A stretch of 64,000 nucleotides of DNA from Patescibacteria group bacterium (GTDB lineage: Bacteria; Patescibacteriota; Microgenomatia; UBA1400; PJMF01): positions 14,351 through 78,350 of the forward strand of contig JBDTME010000002.1 in NCBI GenBank assembly GCA_039934415.1, read 5' to 3'. How positions within the stretch are numbered: the stretch's first letter is position 1; each line of letters starts with the position of its first letter. This document shows positions 48,930 through 61,165 of this stretch, piece after piece. The notes beneath the pieces were generated by a model. It saw nothing but the letters and a program-made list of their open reading frames with translations, did no database searches and was not told the DNA's origin. Both the position numbers and the translations under genes were made by a program.

Positions 48930-50495
48930 ATGGTTTGTATCCTGAATAGTAAGATATTACACACGCTACTCAATAAGCGAATTTCTATGTCAAACATTCC
49001 AGACCGCCTCACAGCTGCATTTAGCCAAGTTAAAAAAGATGTCAAAATGCTGACCAGTTCTCAAACATATTCCAAAATGTCACAGAACCAGATCATCGGC
49101 GGATTGACAATGCTGCTATTGACTGTGGGCGTAGCCGCTGGAGTATATCTCGGTCAGATCAGTCAAGAAAATAGACAACAAGCATTTGTTCCTTATGACA
49201 CTTGTGTAAGTGGTGACAGTAATTGTATAGGACATGGTGATGGTTTCGCCTGCAGCAGTAACGGTCGCTGTGCATTAAGCCAACTTACTGGAAGTTGTTC
49301 ATGTGACCAAACAAATCCAATACCAACTGGCACAATCAGTCTCGGTTGTAGTTCAGGGCAAGAGTTTTTAAATGAAAATACCTGTAATGCTATTTGTGGA
49401 GGAGGTTGTATCCAAGGTGGCATTGGGTATTGCTGTGTGGGTACAGGCCCGACTAGCACACCTGCTTTAGATAATGGCTGCGCTGCTAGTGGCGGTACTT
49501 GCAAAGGGACTTGCGGAGCTAGTGATACACAAACTGGCCTTTGTTCTGGTTCAAGCTCTGGACCAAAATGCTGTAAACCAGTATTACCAACAGCCACCCT
49601 TTTCTGTTGGGGCGCAGGAACGGCTTGCGGAAACTCAGGTGGTAGCGCATCTTGTTGCCCAGGGCTGTCCTGCACAATTGATACTTCCGACAATAATACC
49701 GCCAAGTGTACGGCCCCTGCTAATTGTGGAAATAATGTCTGCTCACAAGGTGAGAATTGTACTACCTGTCCAACTGATTGTGGTCTTTGTCCTCAACCGA
49801 CCAACACGCCTGTCCCAGTGAGTTCTTGCCCATCTGGTGAAACTTGTGTAGAAACAGCAGGTACTTGCGGAGGCATCGGCGGTTCTTTGACATCTAATCG
49901 TTGCGGATCAGGAAATTCACAGTTTTGTTGTTTAGTTATCGATTCATGTCCAAGTGGAGAAACTTGTGTCGAAAATGTTCAAGCTTGTGGCATCATCGGC
50001 GGAACGACTACAAGTAATAGGTGTGGCTCAGAACAAGATTCGAAAACATGTTGTAAGTTGAACTCTGGTCCATCGGCTGCACCTCGTCCAACCAACACAC
50101 CAGTTCCATTACCAACGAACACATCAGTGCCTGTCAGTCCAGGGCAACCAACAAATACGCCTGTTCCAAATCCAAACCCAACGAATACGTCAGTGCCTGT
50201 GGCAACAGACGTACTCGCCCCAGTCTGTGTGAATATCACAATGAACAATCCAGCATCACTGACACCTAATACTCCACCTAACACGGGTGACGTGGTGACC
50301 TTCACCTGTTCTCAAGTGGCTGGCGCAAGTCGATATGAGTTCCGCGTCAAGTTACCAGACAACTCATATGTCAACATCAACCCAAGTCTGGCAACACTCT
50401 ATGTGTCGCAGCAATACCAGATCCCTTCAGCTGGTACTTTCACAGCTGCTTGCCGACCATGTAACGCAAACGCCTGTTCAGCTTGGGAGAATTAA
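48930..50495 (+). CDS. secreted/anchored Cys-rich surface protein, paralog A (type-B leader; C-terminal RYEFR-WEN domain)
   Basis: 521 aa. TM then YLGQISQENRQQAF. A Cys-rich module about 90 percent identical to the one in 51971. Further Cys-rich repeats, a PTNT linker, and a conserved C-terminal domain ending ...CSAWEN-stop. The true start may be the internal MSNIPDRL. Confidence 0.6.
   Translation: MVCILNSKILHTLLNKRISMSNIPDRLTAAFSQVKKDVKMLTSSQTYSKMSQNQIIGGLTMLLLTVGVAAGVYLGQISQENRQQAFVPYDTCVSGDSNCIGHGDGFACSSNGRCALSQLTGSCSCDQTNPIPTGTISLGCSSGQEFLNENTCNAICGGGCIQGGIGYCCVGTGPTSTPALDNGCAASGGTCKGTCGASDTQTGLCSGSSSGPKCCKPVLPTATLFCWGAGTACGNSGGSASCCPGLSCTIDTSDNNTAKCTAPANCGNNVCSQGENCTTCPTDCGLCPQPTNTPVPVSSCPSGETCVETAGTCGGIGGSLTSNRCGSGNSQFCCLVIDSCPSGETCVENVQACGIIGGTTTSNRCGSEQDSKTCCKLNSGPSAAPRPTNTPVPLPTNTSVPVSPGQPTNTPVPNPNPTNTSVPVATDVLAPVCVNITMNNPASLTPNTPPNTGDVVTFTCSQVAGASRYEFRVKLPDNSYVNINPSLATLYVSQQYQIPSAGTFTAACRPCNANACSAWEN
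49174..49441 (+). repeat. dispersed direct repeat copy 1 (Cys-rich module DNA)
   Basis: About 270 bp; roughly 85-90 percent identical by eye to 52211-52478. Confidence 0.7.
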
Positions 50496-50509
50496 AATTA
50501 GACTTATTG

Positions 50510-50545
50510 GTAGGGGTTTCAGCAATTGGAATCCCTACTGTTTAA
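50510..50545 (+). terminator. hairpin after Cys-rich protein A gene (weak terminator candidate)
   Basis: GTAGGG, 17-nt loop, CCCTAC, followed by TGTTTAAT. Confidence 0.25.
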
Positions 50546-50606
50546 TAACTGACTCGTTATTTTGAATGAAAAATGCAACCACGATTGAACGAAAAAGTAA
50601 TATTTT

Positions 50607-51962
50607 ATGGATAGGAAACCTAACCTCCCCTTCCGGTGGAACTCTGTTTTAATCATAGGTCTCATTGTTTTAGTCGGAATTTTTGCAGTTGCCACAGCTC
50701 TTTTTCAGAGAAATCGTGGCCCTCTCGCTCCAAATGCACCTGGATCTCAACCAAAAGCTGATGTTGTCACTGAAGGATGCACGGTTCGCTTCTCCATTTC
50801 AGATGATGCTAATCTCACATGCACCAAAAGAGCATTTCTAGATGAGCTCGACAACATTGCAGGAACCTATCATTTAAGAAATGAAATTCAAAGCATAAAA
50901 GCTGGTGATATCGTCGTCTTCAATATAGATATCCAAAATAACAGCAGCACTGGAACGACTGTGAATTTAAATGATTTGTTTGCAGTGAGTCCCTCTGTTT
51001 CAAATGCCGTGGAATACATTGACTCAAATTGCCCAGGAGGCGGTACCTTTAATCAAAGTACACTCAATTTGACCTGCTCAAATAAATTTGTCGGCGGCGG
51101 TCAAAACCAACAACTCACTTTCCGAGTCAAAGTAAATGCCGCTGCCACAATAGGTACTCAGATCAGTAACACGGCTACAACTTCCGATGGAACAAGTACC
51201 GCAATTTGTACTAGGAGCATCATCGTTGCTGAAGCAACGACTCAAAAAGCCTGCAATCAAAGCTGCGAAACAAGTAAAGAATGTACTGGCACTTTAGAAT
51301 GTACGAATGTAAATGGTTTGTTTGTTTGTAGAGATCCACAAATTCCTAGCGATTCAACATGTGGTGCACCGACTGCCACCCCAACCTTTACTCTAGTCCC
51401 CAGTTCTACGTCTACTTCAACACCAACACGTACGCCGACCAGTACTCCTACTCCTACTCATACTCCAACGGCTACATTCACTTTAGTGCCTACGGCGACG
51501 AGTACTCGAACACCAACTCCAACATTTACTAATACGCCAACTAACACTCCTACAAGAACTCCGAGCCCAACGGCTACTTACACACCGTCGCCTACTTTCA
51601 CTGCACTGCCAACAAGCACAGGCACGGTTACACCAACGGCCACGTTCACTATTACTTTGACACCATCTGCTACGGCTACAACAAGAGTTCTCGCTCAATG
51701 TAACCAGGGTTGCAGTACTAATGCTGATTGTGCCAACTCTAATCAAATTTGTTACACCACGAATGATGGAAATCGTTGTCGTCTCGCAGATAACGTCGGC
51801 AGCGACAATTGCTCGACCACCATCGCTTCGGGTGCAACGTCGACTCCATTCATTCCTCAGTTACCAAAATCTGGTAGTGAAAACCAACGAGTGTTGCTCA
51901 TAGGTGGGGTCATCCTAGTTGTGATCATCATCGGAATTGTGGGCTTCTTACTCATTTTGTAA
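50607..51962 (+). CDS. surface protein with type-A leader ([11 protein letters not shown]), PT-repeat linker, Cys-rich C-terminal module and LPKSG-TM C-terminus
   Basis: 451 aa. TM then [29 protein letters not shown]. Thr/Pro tandem repeats. C-terminal [33 protein letters not shown]-stop. Confidence 0.6.
51365..51690 (+). repeat. imperfect tandem ACN-CCN (Thr-Pro) coding repeat tract
   Basis: Encodes TPTxT/TPTFT repeats inside the 50607 gene. Confidence 0.6.
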
Positions 51963-51970
51963 AAGATTTT

Positions 51971-53548
51971 ATGAGTGATCAAAATTTACCACCACAATCA
52001 AATAATGGCCTGGATGAAATCCTGAAAGAGTTGGAACAACGCTTTGGCATTAATACTGACCAATCGGAAAACCAATCCGACTCCAAAAAAAATAGTGGTG
52101 TTAATTTTAAACGATACGGCAAAAACCAAATTATTGGTGGATTAACACTGGTACTCTTGGTTGTTGGTGCAGTTGCCGGTATATACCTTGGTCAAACAAA
52201 TCAAGAGAACAGACAACAAGCATTTAATCCTTATGACACTTGCGTAAGTGGTGATGGTAATTGTTTAGGACATGGTGATGGTTTTGCCTGTAGTAGCAAT
52301 GGTCGTTGTTCACTGAGTCAGCTCAATGGGAGCTGTTCCTGTGACCAAACAAATCCGATACCAACTAGCACCATTAGTCTCGGTTGTAGTTCGGGGCAAG
52401 AGTTTTTAAATGAAAGTACTTGTAATGCCATTTGTGGTGGCGGATGTATCCAGGCTGGCATTGGGTATTGCTGTGTCGGAAGTGGTTCTAACCCAACCAA
52501 TACTCCGAGTAGTCCAGGCATCACTAACACCCCCAAACCCACCAACACTTCTGTCCCCACTACTCCTGGAGCTCCGACAAATACACCCGTCCCAGTGTCG
52601 ACAACCCAACCACCTGCAAGTACACCTGGCAATCCAGTCAACACACCTGTCCCCGTCCCTGCCACTGCCACACCGCCTACTTCGTGCGGAAATAGTATCG
52701 TGAATACTGGAGAACAATGTGATGACGGAAATTCAAACAATAATGATTATTGTTTGAATAACTGCACATTGAGTTCTTACTGTAAATTTTATGATTTAGA
52801 GGGTTTACCCATTGGAGAAATGCAACCGCTAGGAAGTCCCTACTCAGCAGATGGCATACAATTTTCTAGCAACGGTCAATATTGGGTTGGGAACTATGCC
52901 AGTGTCTTAATTGACCCAGCAGGTGGAGCTGCCTCACCGGTGCACGGTATCTGCGTAAATAACTGTGCTCAAGGGGCATTCGATATATTCTTTAATCCAC
53001 CGGTCGATTTCTTTGGCATAGTTGTGTTTAGTGGACCGAGTTTAGATCCAGTAACATCAACAACAGGACTTACATATTATTACGGCACGAGTAGTAGCCA
53101 GTATGTTAGTAATACTGAGACAGCATACACGCGACATACTATTTCACAAACTGGCATCAATCGCGTCAATTTAACATCATCAAATTCTTATGAAGGTTGG
53201 GATGATATAGTCATTTGTAGATTTCCAACACCAACAAGTACACCGACTACCGCAATTGGCCCTACGTGTAATGGAATCAAAGTTTCATACGGAAACAGCA
53301 ACGAACCAACCAGACCTGTTCGGATTGGTGATAACTTAACGTTCACTTGTGGCACCTTAAGCAGTGCAGCTCGCTATGAATTTAGACTGTTCTTAAACGG
53401 AGTTTTCTTGCAAAACATCAATCCAATTTCCACATCGGCTAGTATTTCGCAACCATTTCCTATTGCACAAAGCGGGAACTATAGTGCACAATGTAGGATG
53501 TGTACTGATAGTACAGCTACAAGTTGTCAATCTTGGGAACCACTATGA
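51971..53548 (+). CDS. secreted/anchored Cys-rich surface protein, paralog B (type-B leader; C-terminal RYEFR-WE domain)
   Basis: 525 aa. TM then YLGQTNQENRQQAF. Cys-rich module near-identical to paralog A. PTNT linker, then a central beta-rich region. C-terminal ...ARYEFRLF...CQSWEPL-stop. Confidence 0.6.
   Translation: MSDQNLPPQSNNGLDEILKELEQRFGINTDQSENQSDSKKNSGVNFKRYGKNQIIGGLTLVLLVVGAVAGIYLGQTNQENRQQAFNPYDTCVSGDGNCLGHGDGFACSSNGRCSLSQLNGSCSCDQTNPIPTSTISLGCSSGQEFLNESTCNAICGGGCIQAGIGYCCVGSGSNPTNTPSSPGITNTPKPTNTSVPTTPGAPTNTPVPVSTTQPPASTPGNPVNTPVPVPATATPPTSCGNSIVNTGEQCDDGNSNNNDYCLNNCTLSSYCKFYDLEGLPIGEMQPLGSPYSADGIQFSSNGQYWVGNYASVLIDPAGGAASPVHGICVNNCAQGAFDIFFNPPVDFFGIVVFSGPSLDPVTSTTGLTYYYGTSSSQYVSNTETAYTRHTISQTGINRVNLTSSNSYEGWDDIVICRFPTPTSTPTTAIGPTCNGIKVSYGNSNEPTRPVRIGDNLTFTCGTLSSAARYEFRLFLNGVFLQNINPISTSASISQPFPIAQSGNYSAQCRMCTDSTATSCQSWEPL
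52211..52478 (+). repeat. dispersed direct repeat copy 2 (Cys-rich module DNA)
   Basis: Matches 49174-49441. Confidence 0.7.
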
Positions 53549-55503
53549 AACAAAAATACCCCATCCTTTCATCACAATTCGTTGATTCGGTGTTCACACC
53601 GCTGTCACTCGTTCTAATTAGTATTGTTGCCATCATTGCTGTGGCAGTGGCTTTGTTCCAAGTGAATAAAGGTCCAGTAGCTCCTAATGCTCCTGGGTCA
53701 CAACCAAAAGCAGCCGACTTTACAGGACAAACTTGTGCCCTCACATTTGTCGTTGCTGGACCATCAGCAACACCAGCTCCTCAGGTCATTGATTTAGAAT
53801 TACAAAAGACCGCAGATAAGTCAGCAGTAAATGTCGGTCAACAAATCACCTTCACAGTTTCACTTTTCAACCGAGGACCTGCAGATGCAACAAATGTCCG
53901 AGTTCAGGATATTTTGCCAACCGGGTTGCAGTACGTTTTAGATACTAGCAGCGGTGCATACAACTCGACGAGTGGCGTTTGGAGCATTGCTAGTTTAGCT
54001 GCGAATCAAACTGTCAGTCTCAATATTACGGCAACAGTAACTCAATCTGGTTCTTTAACTAACTACACTCAAGTTTCAGCTGCAGATCAAACCGATGTGG
54101 ACTCCACTCCAGGAGATAATTCTGGAACTGGCACAGTTGCACATCAAGACGATGACAGCGCAGTTGTGATCAATTCAACAGCCAACACTAGTGACCTTGA
54201 ATTAACCAAACGTGCTAACACTACAACTCCTTCAGTCGGAGGCTCAGTAGTATTCACTATTGATGTTGTGAACAAAGGCCCACAGAACGCAACCGGTGTC
54301 AAAGTAGCCGACTTACTCCCAACTGGATTGAGCTATCTGTCTCACTCCACTGCAACCGGCAACTTTAACTCTACTTCAGGTATCTGGGATATCGGGAATT
54401 TAGCAACAGGTTCAACTGTGAGTTTGACATTGACTGCACAAGTCAACACCACCTCACCTGTAACAAATTACTCTCAGATCACAGCCAGTTCCCCAACGGA
54501 TTCAGATTCAACACCTGGAAATAACTCAGGAAACGGAACAGTGCCACACGAAGATGATGATGACTCGGTCGTACTGACCCCTCAGTCAACACCTACGAAC
54601 ACACCTCCGGCAGTAAGTGCTGATCTATCACTGACCAAACAAATCAGTAATAGTACACCAAAAGTCGGAGAGAACATCACATACACTGTTACGGTCTACA
54701 ATGCCGGACCAAATGACGCAACCAACGTAACAGTCAGTGAGCCACTCGTAGGAGGAACAACATTCGTCTCTGCTACACCGTCTCAAGGTACTTACAATGT
54801 ATCGGCAGGCCTTTGGACAATTGGCACCATTCCTGTCAACCAAAGCAGAACCTTGCAGATCGTCGTGACTGTCAATGTCTCGACCAGCATAACCAACACT
54901 GCACAAGTTCAGCACAGTGACCAACCTGATCCAGACTCTACACCGGGCAATAACAACCCAAATGAAGATGATCAACAGTCAGCTACAACAAACCCTGTTG
55001 CACAAGGCGCTGATCTATCACTCAACAAACGAGTCAATGTGACCAGACCAGTCGTTGGACAGAATGCAATCTTCACAGTTGAAGTGCATAATGCAGGACC
55101 TCTGCAAGCAGATAATGTGACCGTCAAAGACTTGGTCCCATCAGGCACCACCTTTATTGATGCTCAACCTTCTCAAGGTAGCTACAATTCAGGAAACGGT
55201 ATCTGGACGATCGGTTCGATCACAAAAGATTCTACGGTAAGCATACAATTAACGCTGAGAGTTGATACCAACTCACAGATCGTAAACGTGGCAGAAGTAG
55301 CATCAAGCAGTCAACCTGACCCTGACTCTACACCAAACAATAACAATCCAAACGAGGATGACCAAGATGATGCAGTTCTAAATCCTCAGACAGCAGCAGC
55401 TTTACCAAAGTCGGGAAATGCTTCAAACACCACCCTCTTTGTCATAGCAACTGGAGTCATAGTATTGATCATCGGAGCCATGGGACTGCTACTCCTTCTG
55501 TAA
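53545..55503 (+). CDS. DUF11-repeat surface protein with type-A leader and LPKSG-TM C-terminus
   Basis: The ATG overlaps the upstream TGA (ATGA); ORF-track start 53524 is a TTG. TM then [28 protein letters not shown]. Five DUF11-like repeats (LTKxxS...VxNxGPxxATxVxVxDxLPxGxxF). DSTPGNN spacers. C-terminal LPKSGNASNTTLFVIATGVIVLIIGAMGLLLLL-stop. Confidence 0.7.
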   Translation: MKQKYPILSSQFVDSVFTPLSLVLISIVAIIAVAVALFQVNKGPVAPNAPGSQPKAADFTGQTCALTFVVAGPSATPAPQVIDLELQKTADKSAVNVGQQITFTVSLFNRGPADATNVRVQDILPTGLQYVLDTSSGAYNSTSGVWSIASLAANQTVSLNITATVTQSGSLTNYTQVSAADQTDVDSTPGDNSGTGTVAHQDDDSAVVINSTANTSDLELTKRANTTTPSVGGSVVFTIDVVNKGPQNATGVKVADLLPTGLSYLSHSTATGNFNSTSGIWDIGNLATGSTVSLTLTAQVNTTSPVTNYSQITASSPTDSDSTPGNNSGNGTVPHEDDDDSVVLTPQSTPTNTPPAVSADLSLTKQISNSTPKVGENITYTVTVYNAGPNDATNVTVSEPLVGGTTFVSATPSQGTYNVSAGLWTIGTIPVNQSRTLQIVVTVNVSTSITNTAQVQHSDQPDPDSTPGNNNPNEDDQQSATTNPVAQGADLSLNKRVNVTRPVVGQNAIFTVEVHNAGPLQADNVTVKDLVPSGTTFIDAQPSQGSYNSGNGIWTIGSITKDSTVSIQLTLRVDTNSQIVNVAEVASSSQPDPDSTPNNNNPNEDDQDDAVLNPQTAAALPKSGNASNTTLFVIATGVIVLIIGAMGLLLLL

Positions 55504-55535
55504 AAGTAGAAAGAGTTCGTTTAAAACGTAAAAAG

Positions 55536-55569
55536 AAAAGAGGTCTTATTCATTAAGGCCTCTTTTTTT
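55536..55569 (+). terminator. rho-independent terminator after DUF11 surface-protein gene
   Basis: AAAAGAGG, 15-nt loop, CCTCTTTT, then a T7 run. Confidence 0.5.
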
Positions 55570-55659
55570 CAAGAAGAAAGTGAGCATAAAAGTTAGGTGA
55601 AAAAGTAAACAGGATAGAAAGTTAAGTACTTTTTATAAAATTTTTAGAATATAAACGAG

Positions 55660-56535
55660 ATGCAAGAAAGTTTTACTCCTCCGACACAAACTGAACCACA
55701 AGTTTCAAGAGTATCCAAAGTAAAAATGGTTTTGCCTATTTTAGGAGTGGTGGTGGTTGCAGTTGCTGCCGTAGCAGTGAGTTTATTTTTATCACAAAAG
55801 CAGGAACCAGTTGCACCAAATGTCCCCGCCTCACAGCCAAAAGCCTCGGAGATCGTTAATGATATTACTTGTACTTTGAACTTTGAGGTACTCGCACCGA
55901 CTCCGACGCCCACCTTTACTGCAACCTTGACGCCAAGCAATACACCTACTGCTACCCCTACTTTTACGCCAACGAGAACGCCGACCGCCACGCCTACTTT
56001 TACCCCTACACCTATTCCTCCAACGAGTACTCCTACTCGAACACCAACACCAACTGCTACAGCCACTCCGACTGCTACACCAACGAGAACACCAACACCG
56101 ATTCCACCGACCAGTACTCCGACAAATACGCCGACATCGACACCAACATCGACACCAACTGCCACTCCGACTAGAACACCAACGATCACGTTAACACCGT
56201 CAGCAACTGCTACTTACACTCCATCAGCGACTCCAACCTCACCAATTGCCGCTACTTGTAACTCTATTAAGATGATCTATGGCGTTGGGGAGCCAGACAG
56301 AGCACCAAAACTCTCTGACAATGTTCAGTTCCAATGTGGAACAATTGCAGGTGCATCTCGATATGAGTTTAGAATTCTGGCTCCTGCACCGAACAATACC
56401 TACCAACCTTGGCCAGCTATCTCTGGAGGAACATTATCTCAACCATATACCATCGCTGCGTATGGTTCGTACAGCGCGCAATGTCGAGCTTGTGCCGGAG
56501 TTGATGCTTCAAGCTGTCAGCCATGGGAAAACTAA
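55660..56535 (+). CDS. surface protein with type-A leader, long PT-repeat linker and C-terminal RYEFR-WEN domain
   Basis: 291 aa. TM then [31 protein letters not shown]. About 110 aa of TPTxT repeats. C-terminal ...[10 protein letters not shown]...CQPWEN-stop. Confidence 0.55.
55893..56245 (+). repeat. imperfect tandem ACN-CCN (Thr-Pro) coding repeat tract
   Basis: Encodes PTxTPT repeats. Its reverse complement yields the spurious GV-repeat ORF 55644-56189. Confidence 0.6.
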
Positions 56536-56611: not shown

Positions 56612-58261
56612 ATGCTTACTTTATCCAGTCTCTGGCGGTCGAAGCGTTCAGTGATGGCAGTGCTTGCCATCGTAGTTGTGGCTGTAGCAGCTGTAGGTAT
56701 TTCACTTTTTCAACGTTTTTCGCAAGGAACCCTCGCTCCCAACGCTCCACAGTCTCGACCAGCGGCTTCAGAAGTAAACTCAAATACCTGCACATTAAGT
56801 TTTTCAGTTGAACCACCCGCTGCTCCGTGTATCGCATTGACAAAAGTTGCTAGCCCCATCTGTTTGCCAAATGGTTCACCTGGCGCCCAAATTACTCTCG
56901 GAACGAACGCGACTTGTCCTCCTCAACCAGGAACTCGTAAACCAGTTGATGTCATGATCGTGATGGATAACTCAACTTCTCTATCTGCCGATAAATTTTG
57001 GGGTCCGATTAAAACTGCAACTGCTAATAGTGTGATGAATTTCGATCCAGCTGTAGACAGAGTTGGTTTAGTAACTTTTAATCGCAGTGCGACACTTCGC
57101 TCTGGTTTGACGAATAATCTTAGTTCAGTTCAATCAATTGTTGATAATTTGTCCGTTCCAGCCAGTGGATCAGCGACCAATATCGGTAATGGATTAGAAA
57201 TAGCAAAAAATACACTGGCGAGCACTGCCCGACCAGAAGCAGTCAAAGTAGTTATCTTATTCACAGATGGCCAGGCAAATGCAGATTCCACACTCACGAT
57301 CTGCGATACCTTTGATCTGAACTGGAACTCATGCAAACAGCACGCTCAAACTCAAGCAACGCTTATTAAGAGTGCTGGAAGCACCTTGTATGCTGTTGGA
57401 TTTAATACGGTGAGTGAAACACAGCATCCAGGCTCAACTGCGATGTTGCATGATTTACTTTTACAAATGGCCTCTTCGAGTAACACGTATTACACCTCAA
57501 ACAACTCCACTGAACTCGCTGCTGCATTTGCTCACATTGCAGATACTATTACCGATACTTTGGCAAATAGCGCAGTGATCACAGATATTCTTCCTCCGGG
57601 AATTTCGCTCGTTTCCGGAAGCGCCATCCCTGCTTTTACAACTCAAAGTGGCCAAACGCTCACTTGGAATCTGGGTACAGTTGGAGTTGATCAACAAACC
57701 ACAGTGACATTTCAAGTTGCTTTACCCAACTTCTCAGCCAACCAACTCGTTGACGTCTATCCCGACTCCGAAATCAACTACACTGACCACTTAGGCAATC
57801 CTATTACATTGTCTTTCCCTGAAACTCGAGTTTCACCGAATACTTGTGCGACACCAACTGCTATTCCTTCACCTACTTCTAATCCAACTAACACACCAAC
57901 AAGTAGTCCAACGCCGACTTTCACGGCCACCCCAACTAACACCAGGACGCCTACACCAACTTTTACAGCAACTCCGACGAACACGCCAACAAATACTCCA
58001 ACGCCTACCAATACTGCAACCAATACGCCAACACGCACCCCAACACCGACGGCTACTGCCACAGCGACGAGTACTCCTTCACATACACCTACGCTGACTG
58101 CAACCAATACAGCAACTCAAACACCAACATCGACATTCACGCCTACTCCAACCCCACCAGGACTGCCGAAAGCTGGCACTACAGGACCAACATTCATGAT
58201 TCTAGGAATCGGCGTTGCAGCAATCGCCTTCGGACTGCTGGGAATCTTGTTACTCTTCTAG
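56612..58261 (+). CDS. von Willebrand factor A-domain surface protein with type-A leader and LPKAG-TM C-terminus
   Basis: 549 aa. TM then [28 protein letters not shown]. vWA blocks [12 protein letters not shown] (MIDAS DxSxS), [17 protein letters not shown]-repeat linker. C-terminal [32 protein letters not shown]-stop. Confidence 0.7.
57850..58160 (+). repeat. imperfect tandem ACN-CCN (Thr-Pro) coding repeat tract
   Basis: Encodes PTNTPT repeats. Reverse strand gives the spurious ORFs 57778-58107 and 57846-58097. Confidence 0.6.
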
Positions 58262-58327: not shown

Positions 58328-58401
58328 GCGCCTGTAGCTCAATCGGTTAGAGCATCAAGCTTATACCTTGAGGGTTCTAGGTTCGAGTCCTAGCAGGCGC
58401 A
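58328..58401 (+). tRNA. tRNA-Ile with anticodon UAU (TAT)
   Basis: 74-nt cloverleaf folded by hand. Acceptor GCGCCTG/CAGGCGC with discriminator A. D-arm GCTC/GAGC. Anticodon stem TCAAG/CTTGA, loop CTTATAC with U33 and A37. T-arm CTAGG-TTCGAGT-CCTAG. No encoded CCA. Confidence 0.85.
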
Positions 58402-58413
58402 CAGGAAAAAATT

Positions 58414-58831: not shown

Positions 58832-61165
58832 TTACAATTTCGCTCGTTTATTCATATCTTCTTCGACAACGGCACGGGGTTTGCCATATTTCAGTCGTGA
58901 CAGTTCTTTGATCATCTCAGCAAGCTTGGGGTTCATCTGAGCTTTTTGAGCATCCATGTCCTTTTTCAGAGACATGCTAAATGGTGGAACGGGTTCATTT
59001 CCGACAATTGTCTTGATATACACGTTATATTTTTCAATATTAGTTAAATCATTTTCGGAAAACACCGGTGCAAATTCGTGCTGCAAGAAATTGGCATCAG
59101 GTACACCGACACGGAAACAAATCATGGTACCAACGTTTCCAAACACAGCATTTTTGACATCTTCTTCGATCTGGGCTACAAATTGATTTGCCACAATTAG
59201 ATTCAATCGATATTTCCGAGCCTCGGACAGAATAACGGCAAAATCTTCAGTCGCATAATTCTGAAACTCATCAACGTATAAATAGAAGTCAGTACGCTGT
59301 TCCATCGGAATATTTGCACGACCCATTGCAGCTGTCAACACTTTCGGCACCAAGATCAAACCCAAGAACTTTGCATCCTCTTCACCCAACTTTCCTTTAG
59401 ACAAGTTCACTAATAAAATTTTCTGCTCATCCATAATTCTGCGAACATTAAACGCACTATCCGATTGACCAATGATATTACGCATCGTTTTATTGGTAAT
59501 AAATCGACCGAACTTTGACACAATATAGTCCAGCACTTCTGACTTATGAAAATCAGACGTTTGAGCAATTTGATCCGTCCAATATCGGCGCACGATTGGA
59601 TCTTTGACATACGGTAGCATCTCTTCTACAAACTTCGCGTCGGTCAGTAAGCGAACCATCTCAATAAACGTTCCACCTGGTTTCGACATGATCGTTAACA
59701 TTGCGTTACGAATGGCGTGTTCGAATCGAGGACCGATGATACCTGTCTTGTGTGGATCGTACAGTTTATACATTAACCCAATCACGGATGACGCCACAAA
59801 ATGCTGCTCTTCTTCTGTAAAGGCCTCCATCATATTCATACCCATCGGTCGATCTGTATCAGACGGATTAAAATAAATCACATCCTCAGCACGCTCTGGT
59901 GGCATCAGCTGCATCACATCTTCCACAAACTCTCCATGCGGATCGATCGCGCAGACCCCTTTTCCATCCACAATGTCCTGCAAAATCATTTCTTTCAGGA
60001 ACTCCGATTTTCCTGTTCCAGTCTTTCCAATGATGTACATGTGACGTCGACGATCATCTAATCCCAAGAAGATTTTCTTATCTTGACCACGATAGGAACT
60101 TTTCCCAAGATACAAACCAGTCTGAGAAATGTTTTCAGGAGCCGGTGCGCTTTTCGCGTTTAACCAAAAAATGTGGTGAGTCTCGACAGTTTTATTAGGA
60201 AAATGAAAAACAGTCGCCAACTCTTCTGAGTTTAAAATAAATGAGCCACGATTAAACATCGGTATATACCGATAAATCATGTCGATCATGAATAATTGTT
60301 TGACCCAAATTCGAGTTTTTTCAAACGCATTAAATGACGAAGTGTATTGGGCGAAAGCACTCACTATATTATTTAAATGCGATTGAGCCGTCCTTTCTTG
60401 GGGAGAGGAGACCACAATTCGCATACTTACACGAAAACCTGGACGACTCACTTTATTATCAATACTTTCTAGTTGTTTTGGATCATTTCTGTATGAAGCT
60501 TTCTCTGGATCCGCTTCTTTCTTTTTGATATTAGAAACATACGAACTCCCACTTTTTTGCCACCCTTCGCCTTCTGGTTGAATCAGAATCTGCAACACAG
60601 CACCTTCACCATCCACCATTTTTGACATTGCAGAAGTGATCAAAGATAAACCATCTGTTGGCAAATCTTTGTAGGTTTTAATAGGAAAATAATTTGGATG
60701 TTTGAGATGAATAGCGCTAAAAGCCACTTTGCCGTGCTCAGAAAAAATATTCACCTCGTCGTGCTCTTCAATTCGTGCGCCAGGATACGCCCCATGAACT
60801 TGCTTCTCCACTAAGTCTCGCAGTGATCGAGGGACATTGATATAAAACTTAATTTCTTCTTTTAAGGCTACAATCTCAAAACCAATATGAGGCTGTGGCT
60901 TTAAGAAAGAGAACCAACCATCCTCACGCAATGAATGCAGTGACGCAAACATTTGCTCAGCTGCATCAATTTTAATTTCATTATCTTTAGGAAGTGCAAC
61001 TAACAGTGTGACAAAATCTAAGGAATATTTTTCTTTATTGCGATATTTAAACCATTGAAAAAACATGTACAAGAACACTGCCAAACCAAGCAACGAGATA
61101 AACAACAACACGAGCATGCTGACGTACACGAGCGACTGGGCGATGAGTTCGTTAAGTTGATTCAT
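58832..61165 (-). CDS. membrane-anchored P-loop NTPase of the TraD/TraG/VirD4 coupling-protein (FtsK-HerA superfamily, DUF87-like) type
   Basis: 777 aa. Two N-terminal TM helices. Walker A IIGKTGTGKS, resembling TraD GxTGxGKS. Walker B LYVDEFQNY followed by LIVANQ. Overall T4CP-like layout. Exact family not resolvable by eye. Confidence 0.5.
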   Translation of the reverse strand: MNQLNELIAQSLVYVSMLVLLFISLLGLAVFLYMFFQWFKYRNKEKYSLDFVTLLVALPKDNEIKIDAAEQMFASLHSLREDGWFSFLKPQPHIGFEIVALKEEIKFYINVPRSLRDLVEKQVHGAYPGARIEEHDEVNIFSEHGKVAFSAIHLKHPNYFPIKTYKDLPTDGLSLITSAMSKMVDGEGAVLQILIQPEGEGWQKSGSSYVSNIKKKEADPEKASYRNDPKQLESIDNKVSRPGFRVSMRIVVSSPQERTAQSHLNNIVSAFAQYTSSFNAFEKTRIWVKQLFMIDMIYRYIPMFNRGSFILNSEELATVFHFPNKTVETHHIFWLNAKSAPAPENISQTGLYLGKSSYRGQDKKIFLGLDDRRRHMYIIGKTGTGKSEFLKEMILQDIVDGKGVCAIDPHGEFVEDVMQLMPPERAEDVIYFNPSDTDRPMGMNMMEAFTEEEQHFVASSVIGLMYKLYDPHKTGIIGPRFEHAIRNAMLTIMSKPGGTFIEMVRLLTDAKFVEEMLPYVKDPIVRRYWTDQIAQTSDFHKSEVLDYIVSKFGRFITNKTMRNIIGQSDSAFNVRRIMDEQKILLVNLSKGKLGEEDAKFLGLILVPKVLTAAMGRANIPMEQRTDFYLYVDEFQNYATEDFAVILSEARKYRLNLIVANQFVAQIEEDVKNAVFGNVGTMICFRVGVPDANFLQHEFAPVFSENDLTNIEKYNVYIKTIVGNEPVPPFSMSLKKDMDAQKAQMNPKLAEMIKELSRLKYGKPRAVVEEDMNKRAKL

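Follow-up and report, generated by a model that had tools for sequence, protein, structure and literature searches.

What is the function of a domain that closes three otherwise different proteins of one bacterial gene cluster? The question is raised by a stretch of 64,000 nucleotides (hereafter the window) from a member of the Patescibacteria (GenBank assembly GCA_039934415.1, contig JBDTME010000002.1, positions 14,351 to 78,350 of the forward strand), in which six genes on the same strand lie between 48.9 and 58.3 kilobases (kb) and three of them, here called A, B and C, end in a common C-terminal domain (CTD) of about 95 residues. Patescibacteria, or the Candidate Phyla Radiation (CPR), make up a very large share of bacterial diversity, most of it uncultured, and live attached to other cells. 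Apart from type IV pili and the recently described Pam pili, to our knowledge little has been learned about the CPR surface apparatus. The three CTD proteins (NCBI MEO8581518, MEO8581520 and MEO8581522) come from a metagenome-assembled genome (MAG) labelled 'Patescibacteria group bacterium', and all are annotated as 'hypothetical protein'. Together our results lead to the proposal that the CTD may be a docking module, which a β-strand at the N-terminus of the protein encoded by the next gene would complete and a disulfide would lock.

An earlier note, made from the letters of the window alone, had proposed that the open reading frames (ORFs) at 48930, 51971 and 55660 share a C-terminal domain with W-E-N/P at the very end. 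The three + strand ORFs are real and all end in the CTD, with the observed termini WEN-stop, WEPL-stop and WEN-stop. The note counted four conserved cysteines; there are in fact five (C..I, TFTC, QCRxC and C..WE), and five were already present in its own pattern. The three copies share 37-40% pairwise identity and 26 invariant columns. A hidden Markov model (HMM) of the three copies, with which all six reading frames of the 64 kb were searched, matched these three ORFs only (E 8e-52, 9e-51 and 4e-49), and the next best match had an E-value of 0.27. The gap between 4e-49 and 0.27 places the matches beyond chance, and thus the copies are genuine paralogues and the window holds no fourth CTD. The upstream architectures differ as described: proteins A and B have a transmembrane (TM) helix followed by Cys-rich modules, and protein C has a TM helix, a short motif and a Pro/Thr (PT) linker of about 110 residues.

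The CTD is not confined to this genome. Homologue searches with a word prefilter returned no match for the 3-sequence alignment and only short fragments for an 8-sequence alignment; such a prefilter is blind to the family, and an exhaustive HMM search was therefore needed. An exhaustive HMMER scan over 1.84 billion representative proteins identified 558 CTD clusters at E<=1e-3, of which 224 also pass E<=1e-10, and the domain is present well outside its source genome. From 150 matches listed, P0005, P0075, P0118 and P0149 were removed (P0075 had no domain match in a re-scan and the other three were set aside). Among the 146 that remain, the CTD ends no more than 10 residues from the C-terminus in 128 (88%), in agreement with the description of a C-terminal module. 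All five cysteines are invariant in 170 domain instances, and the consensus reads GP.C..I.M...P..GD.VTFTCG.V.GA.RYEFRV..P.G...S...TI...G.Y.AQCR.CTG.....C..WE. The module is also portable, as had been suggested, since it is found on Cys-rich, PT-linker, VWA, β-propeller-like and other bodies; three members have other Pfam domains elsewhere in the protein (Laminin_G_3, VWA and Fib_succ_major).

We compared the CTD with known families by sequence, profile and model. Pfam gave no match over the domain in the three window proteins, nor did precomputed Pfam assignments for homologues and for members at further loci. Among 73 diverse members the Pfam matches were sub-threshold only, with ChitinaseA_N in 11 of the 73 (best E 6e-4), Y_Y_Y in 6, and also Ig_3 and PKD; the CTD likewise falls under the cut-off of Pfam fn3 (PF00041). 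NCBIfam returned nothing above cut-off for the same 73 members (best E 0.012). A PDB sequence search with the CTD profile yielded weak matches to the immunoglobulin superfamily (IgSF), namely FcRL5 (E 3.6e-5) and CEA (E 2e-4), and in these alignments the TFTC and Y..QC of the CTD fall on the B- and F-strand Cys positions. An AlphaFold2 model built from the 73-sequence alignment (predicted local distance difference test, pLDDT, 86.8; predicted template modelling score, pTM, 0.74) has strands A, B, C and F and, after the F-G loop, only a one-residue bridge. A Foldseek comparison of the CTD model with the PDB gave no match at E<=1e-3.

The closest profile match was to complete FN3-like 'GATRY' repeats (hhalign probability 92.7%, E 4e-7). 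This match is limited to strands B to F, with CTD profile columns 34-96 aligned to repeat columns 13-76 of 99. The complete repeats run about 20 residues further, through the F-G loop and strand G; past the match, the CTD has a Cys-closed F-G loop and then xxWE, and 3-16 residues (median 6) separate the last cysteine from the stop. Taken together, the family, profile and model comparisons place the CTD within the FN3/Ig-like β-sandwich fold class as a divergent member that no described family covers. The earlier claim of novelty thus stands for the family, which is absent by sequence from Pfam, NCBIfam and PDB, but not for the fold. The CTD resembles other FN3/Ig-like domains (Pfam fn3, IgSF and the repeats of P0118 and P0149) in its β-sandwich fold and in the signature V.F.(W/C)..V.GA.RY.(L/F).V, and its strand-B and strand-F cysteines align with those of the IgSF disulfide. 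It differs in scoring under all Pfam thresholds, in its five invariant cysteines, in its near-constant C-terminal place and in strand G, which the model suggests is missing or vestigial.

Outside the family, the sequences closest to the CTD are the repeats of P0118 and P0149. These two proteins, which lie outside the window, have dockerin-type N-termini, and behind them come 7-9 tandem FN3-like repeats that are free of Cys and show the signature V.F.W..V.GATRY.LEV...Y.WRVRA. A reading of P0005, P0075, P0118 and P0149 as tandem CTD repeats was rejected: the repeats are ordinary Cys-free FN3-like ones in which only the B-C strand signature matches.

Further loci were collected by one genome scan, one metagenome scan and exact-protein look-ups, which gave 16 loci and 25 CTD genes with a readable downstream neighbour. 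The earlier note had pointed to a possible co-occurrence with LPKSG-type partner genes, and for 23 of the 25 CTD genes the very next gene, read in the same direction, has a product that ends in LPxxG and a TM helix (LPKSG, LPKAG, LPVAG, LPRTG, LPETG and others). For the remaining two, a second CTD gene comes next and then LPxxG genes. All three window partners carry LPKSG or LPKAG with a TM helix, although only partner 1 exceeds the cut-off of TIGR01167 (16.7 bits versus 15.9). The window anchors have purely hydrophobic ends (...GLLLLL-stop) and do not carry the basic tail that is usual in sortase signals. Among PDB sequences, partner 1 had no relevant match. Partner 2 likely starts at the ATG at 53545 and not at the upstream TTG at 53524 of the ORF list; the TGA stop of gene B and this ATG overlap as ATGA (53545-53548), which suggests translational coupling.

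The partners share an N-terminal element composed of AxA|LFQ (likely a signal-peptidase site), AP(N/T)AP.S.P.A, about 8 residues, and C-[TSA]-[LVM]-x-F-x-[VIA]. The seven-residue strand CxLxFxV is present in 22 of 23 partners and is mostly bounded by prolines or leads straight into a PT linker, indicating that it belongs to no globular domain. Several CTD proteins carry the same element themselves, including protein C, P0011, P0028 and P0057. Judged by its sequence, CxLxFxV could be the conserved donor strand on a partner that is characteristic of donor-strand pilins, both in the LPxxG proteins and in CTD proteins of the C type.

Cysteine counts downstream of the N-terminal TM helix provide a second link between the two elements. 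The count is odd in 90 of 102 complete CTD proteins (p=6e-16) and in all 23 LPxxG partners. As controls we used neighbouring secreted proteins with neither CTD nor donor motif (three Cys-rich bodies with a QExRxQA N-terminus and one with a VPVTG anchor), and none of these four had an odd count. Furthermore, parity changes when both elements occur in one protein: nine of ten CTD proteins with a CxLxFxV strand have an even count, versus 3 of 92 without it (Fisher p=9e-10). The parity data thus point to one unpaired cysteine in the CTD and one in the strand, two elements that belong either to neighbouring genes or to a single protein. An attempt to identify the free cysteine from natural loss patterns was uninformative, since the five cysteines are invariant in 170 instances. 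We also considered whether the CTD or the APNAP motif might serve as a sortase lysine acceptor; this was rejected, as the CTD has no conserved Lys and that of SQPKA varies among donor motifs.

We propose, with about even confidence, that the CTD is a docking or acceptor module completed by the N-terminal strand of its partner and locked by a disulfide, a function that would be a new variant of donor-strand assembly. In the proposed mechanism, the CTD would be an FN3/Ig-like sandwich in which the last strand (G) is missing or vestigial and one cysteine is unpaired. The adjacent downstream gene would supply a surface protein with a C-terminal LPxxG and TM anchor of the sortase type, presumably processed by a sortase. 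The mature N-terminus of this partner would then offer its Pro-flanked, isolated β-strand CxLxFxV, with an unpaired cysteine of its own. Finally, the strand would be donated into the CTD, where it would take the place of the absent edge or G strand, and a disulfide would form, leaving the CTD protein covalently mounted on the anchored partner. Proteins A and B, acceptors only, would be distal Cys-rich caps whose signal anchor may be cleaved; the LPxxG proteins, donors only, would be bases; and protein C, with donor, PT linker and acceptor, would be an extender or adaptor. The need to keep the strand-G slot open would explain why the CTD ends at the stop codon. Of the functions offered in the earlier note, partner binding fits the gene context and the Cys parity.

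Somewhat more tentatively, the two elements can be viewed as a natural 'tag-catcher' pair for modular surface fibres, in which the catcher would be the C-terminal FN3-like domain without strand G and the tag the N-terminal CxLxFxV strand of an LPxxG protein. A disulfide would fix the two, perhaps aided by the QC(R/Q)xC motif of the CTD itself, and proteins with both elements, such as protein C, could chain subunits.

Several observations weigh against docking. The short C..WE tail may be a minimal G strand, in which case the fold is complete. In 18 of the 146 members (~12%) more than 10 residues follow the CTD, comprising LamG, propeller-like or FISUMP domains, more Cys-rich sequence or a second CTD copy. 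P0079, with two CTDs, has an odd Cys count where a simple tally predicts an even one, and the window itself has four donor strands for three acceptors. Many loci are mutually related, so the pairing and parity counts are not phylogenetically independent. No sortase was found in the window or the loci with a TLxTC-type regular expression, or in the precomputed Pfam lists. Likewise, no PapD-, FimC- or PamC-like chaperone family of Pfam is present among the neighbours in the window and 12 further loci, where divergent chaperones could be missed.

The generic fold of the CTD would suit a self-contained adhesive head, that is, an FN3/Ig-like ligand-binding domain at the far end of an N-terminally anchored stalk, with host-cell or matrix glycans or proteins as targets. 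The odd cysteine would then be a free thiol or a ligand or metal binder, and adjacency to LPxxG genes would reflect no more than a shared adhesin operon. The sub-threshold Pfam matches to ChitinaseA_N and Y_Y_Y are compatible with such a role, the Cys-rich or PT regions upstream of the CTD are stalk-like, and Patescibacteria are described in the literature as episymbionts that need adhesins. We nevertheless consider an adhesive head unlikely. It leaves unexplained the matched odd parity of the paired genes and its flip when CxLxFxV is present in cis, the conserved Pro-flanked strand at the partner N-terminus, and the apparent stop of the fold at strand F; moreover, the invariant residues are core or Cys positions and form no obvious surface-binding patch. 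A structural FN3-like spacer seems to us rather improbable. On that explanation position and pairing would reflect descent, not function, having been inherited from one ancestral operon that diversified by duplication, and indeed the three window pairs, as well as the syntenic loci L001 and L019, have the appearance of one pair duplicated in tandem, with flanking synteny (MurJ-PilN-PilO, a TrwB-like ATPase) common to many loci. However, the upstream bodies are mutually unrelated (Cys-rich, pure PT linker, VWA, and the β-propeller-like GGK(I/V)(W/Y) repeats of an L002 protein), and they exchange endings: a VWA protein with a donor strand (P0128, L024 5001-6782) has a CTD in place of LPxxG, and a Cys-rich protein of the A/B type (L001 5135-6196) has LPKAG in place of a CTD, together with an even Cys count and no donor motif. 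The same bodies ending in either element indicate module shuffling under a positional rule, and the five invariant cysteines and the parity statistics argue for functional constraint.

The earlier note had also offered a secretion or sorting function, comparable to the C-terminal domains of the type IX secretion system (T9SS), and this part of its suggestion found no support. An export or attachment machine would recognise such a signal and might also cleave it off. Its attractions are the extreme C-terminal position in 88% of members, a size of about 90 residues and an Ig-like fold that resemble T9SS CTDs, and a TrwB/VirD4-like ATPase that recurs nearby. Yet the T9SS tail model TIGR04183 matches only 1 of the 73 members (E 0.078), every member already has a signal or TM helix at its N-terminus, and the CTD can be internal or duplicated, so that the obligatory extreme C-terminal position of a sorting signal is not kept. 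Five invariant cysteines and odd parity are foreign to known sorting domains, and Patescibacteria are generally held to lack an outer membrane. We regard this explanation as very improbable.

The proposed docking has precedents in part. Chaperone-usher pilins (Pap/Fim) have an incomplete Ig-like fold without strand G that is completed by the N-terminal extension of another subunit, as proposed for the CTD. These pilins belong to another sequence family; their assembly is non-covalent, takes place in the periplasm of Gram-negatives and relies on a chaperone and an usher, whereas the CTD system belongs to a presumably monoderm organism and has an FN3-like domain, an LPxxG anchor and, as we infer, a covalent disulfide. 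Pam pili of CPR bacteria (PamA/PamB/PamT/PamR) are Sec-dependent, have subunits with paired cysteines and need no envelope-spanning machine; their anchor PamR combines FnIII domains with an N-terminal strand and a C-terminal TM helix, the strand that links the domains of a two-domain pilin acts as donor, and the operon includes genes for the chaperones PamC and PamD (bioRxiv 10.64898/2026.03.03.709456). The CTD system is similar in its occurrence in the CPR/Patescibacteria and in an anchor with an N-terminal strand and a C-terminal TM helix. It differs in its donor, an N-terminal Pro-flanked strand with a cysteine, in its LPxxG partners, in the implied disulfide lock and in that no chaperone homologue was seen nearby.

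Disulfides between subunits were described for the Ena pili of Bacillus, where they form through N-terminal connector peptides and accompany β-sheet augmentation (bioRxiv 10.1101/2020.08.21.260141). The Cys-bearing N-terminal peptides are comparable to the proposed donor strand, but Ena subunits are single jellyrolls that build homopolymeric helical spore fibres and have neither an LPxxG partner nor an FN3-like acceptor. Sortase-assembled Gram-positive pili and LPXTG adhesins resemble the CTD partners in the LPxxG and TM helix, in adhesin-type domains (VWA, DUF11) as in tip pilins, and in operon organization. In contrast, CTD proteins have neither LPXTG nor a conserved pilin-motif Lys, the partner anchors are without a basic tail, the proposed bond is a strand with a disulfide and not an isopeptide, and no sortase gene was found near CTD loci. 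The CTD system is set apart from Pam, chaperone-usher, Ena and sortase pili by its domain family, by the N-terminal Cys donor strand with an LPxxG-anchored partner, and by having no recognisable chaperone or sortase genes nearby.

The CTD marks hundreds of large Cys-rich 'hypothetical' surface proteins, each tied to an anchored partner with adhesin domains (VWA, DUF11). If docking is correct, it would provide an annotation rule (CTD as acceptor, AP(N/T)AP-CxLxFxV as donor), a testable assembly model for CPR host-attachment structures, and a small natural covalent peptide-domain pair for protein engineering. Should the tag-catcher interpretation also be right, appendages of the Gram-positive type would have a third covalent principle in addition to the isopeptides made by sortases and the disulfides of Ena.

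The features of the cluster are collected in the table below. Gene A is given in the NCBI annotation as a 502-residue form that starts at 48987.

Table. The three CTD genes of the window, their LPxxG partners and the elements within them; donor and acceptor roles are those proposed in the text.
Feature	Position	Strand	Description
Gene A	48930..50495	+	N-terminal TM helix, QENRQQA motif, Cys-rich modules, PT linker, CTD; putative acceptor only
CTD of A	50196..50492	+	FN3-like, apparently truncated, 5 Cys; ending WEN-stop
Partner 1	50607..51962	+	signal/TM, AP(N)AP motif, candidate donor strand, β-sandwich and Cys knots, PT linker, LPKSG and TM anchor (51861-51962); 17 Cys (odd)
Candidate donor strand of partner 1	50727..50798	+	N-terminal; ends CTVRFSI; putative unpaired Cys
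Gene B	51971..53548	+	TM helix, QENRQQA motif, Cys-rich modules (one myxo_disulf repeat), CTD; 25 Cys (odd); putative acceptor only
CTD of B	53237..53545	+	ending WEPL-stop
Partner 2	53524..55503	+	four DUF11 repeats, LPKSG and TM anchor (55402-55503); sole Cys in N-terminal candidate donor strand
Candidate donor strand of partner 2	53680..53754	+	ends CALTFVV
Gene C	55660..56535	+	TM helix, candidate donor strand, ~110-residue PT linker, CTD; 6 Cys (even); putative donor and acceptor
Candidate donor strand of C	55813-55890	+	APNVP...CTLNFEV
CTD of C	56227..56532	+	ending WEN-stop
Partner 3	56612..58261	+	candidate donor strand APNAP...CTLSFSV (56735-56809), VWA domain, PT linker, LPKAG and TM anchor (58163-58261); 7 Cys (odd)

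Additional observations were made on these proteins and their surroundings. The motif YLGQxSQENRQQA lies directly behind the N-terminal TM helix in A (49164-49184) and B (52202-52222). Its general form, Q(E/D)xR(Q/K)QA, occurs in about half of the CTD family and in some LPxxG partners and may be a processing site. In loci L012-L017 (Joint Genome Institute, JGI, Ga0490044-Ga0490054) the source gene calls give the CTD gene as four small ORFs of 51, 44, 116 and 124 residues; translated with table 11, it is one intact 462-residue ORF whose product has a TM helix, the QExRxQA motif and a CTD.

The window also encodes a TrwB/VirD4-like coupling ATPase (DUF87 and TrwB_AAD_bind, with DUF8128 in relatives; 58832-61165, - strand), situated a few kb downstream of the CTD/LPxxG genes. 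The same type of ATPase is similarly placed at L019 10216-12570 (-) and L020 9588-10607 (-), which may reflect plain synteny or a functional link to export. Upstream of the cluster, an island of about 25 kb with a low guanine-cytosine content of 31-36% (21700-46600) carries glycan-synthesis genes (Wzy_C twice, GT2/GT4/GT8, Asn synthase, PMT_2 and an ABC-2 exporter). It splits a LepA-MurJ-PilN-PilO-Pur_ac_phosph_N-Bac_transf block (11.9-21.7 kb) from the CTD cluster; in L011 this block abuts a CTD gene directly, and in L018 it does so too, minus Bac_transf. Loci L001 and L002 are syntenic clusters in GTDB-representative MAGs labelled 'uncultured Pseudomonadales bacterium'; in gene content they are similar to the Patescibacteria window, and the labels are probably wrong. 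Directly behind the six-gene cluster lies a gene for tRNA-Ile with anticodon TAT (58328-58402).

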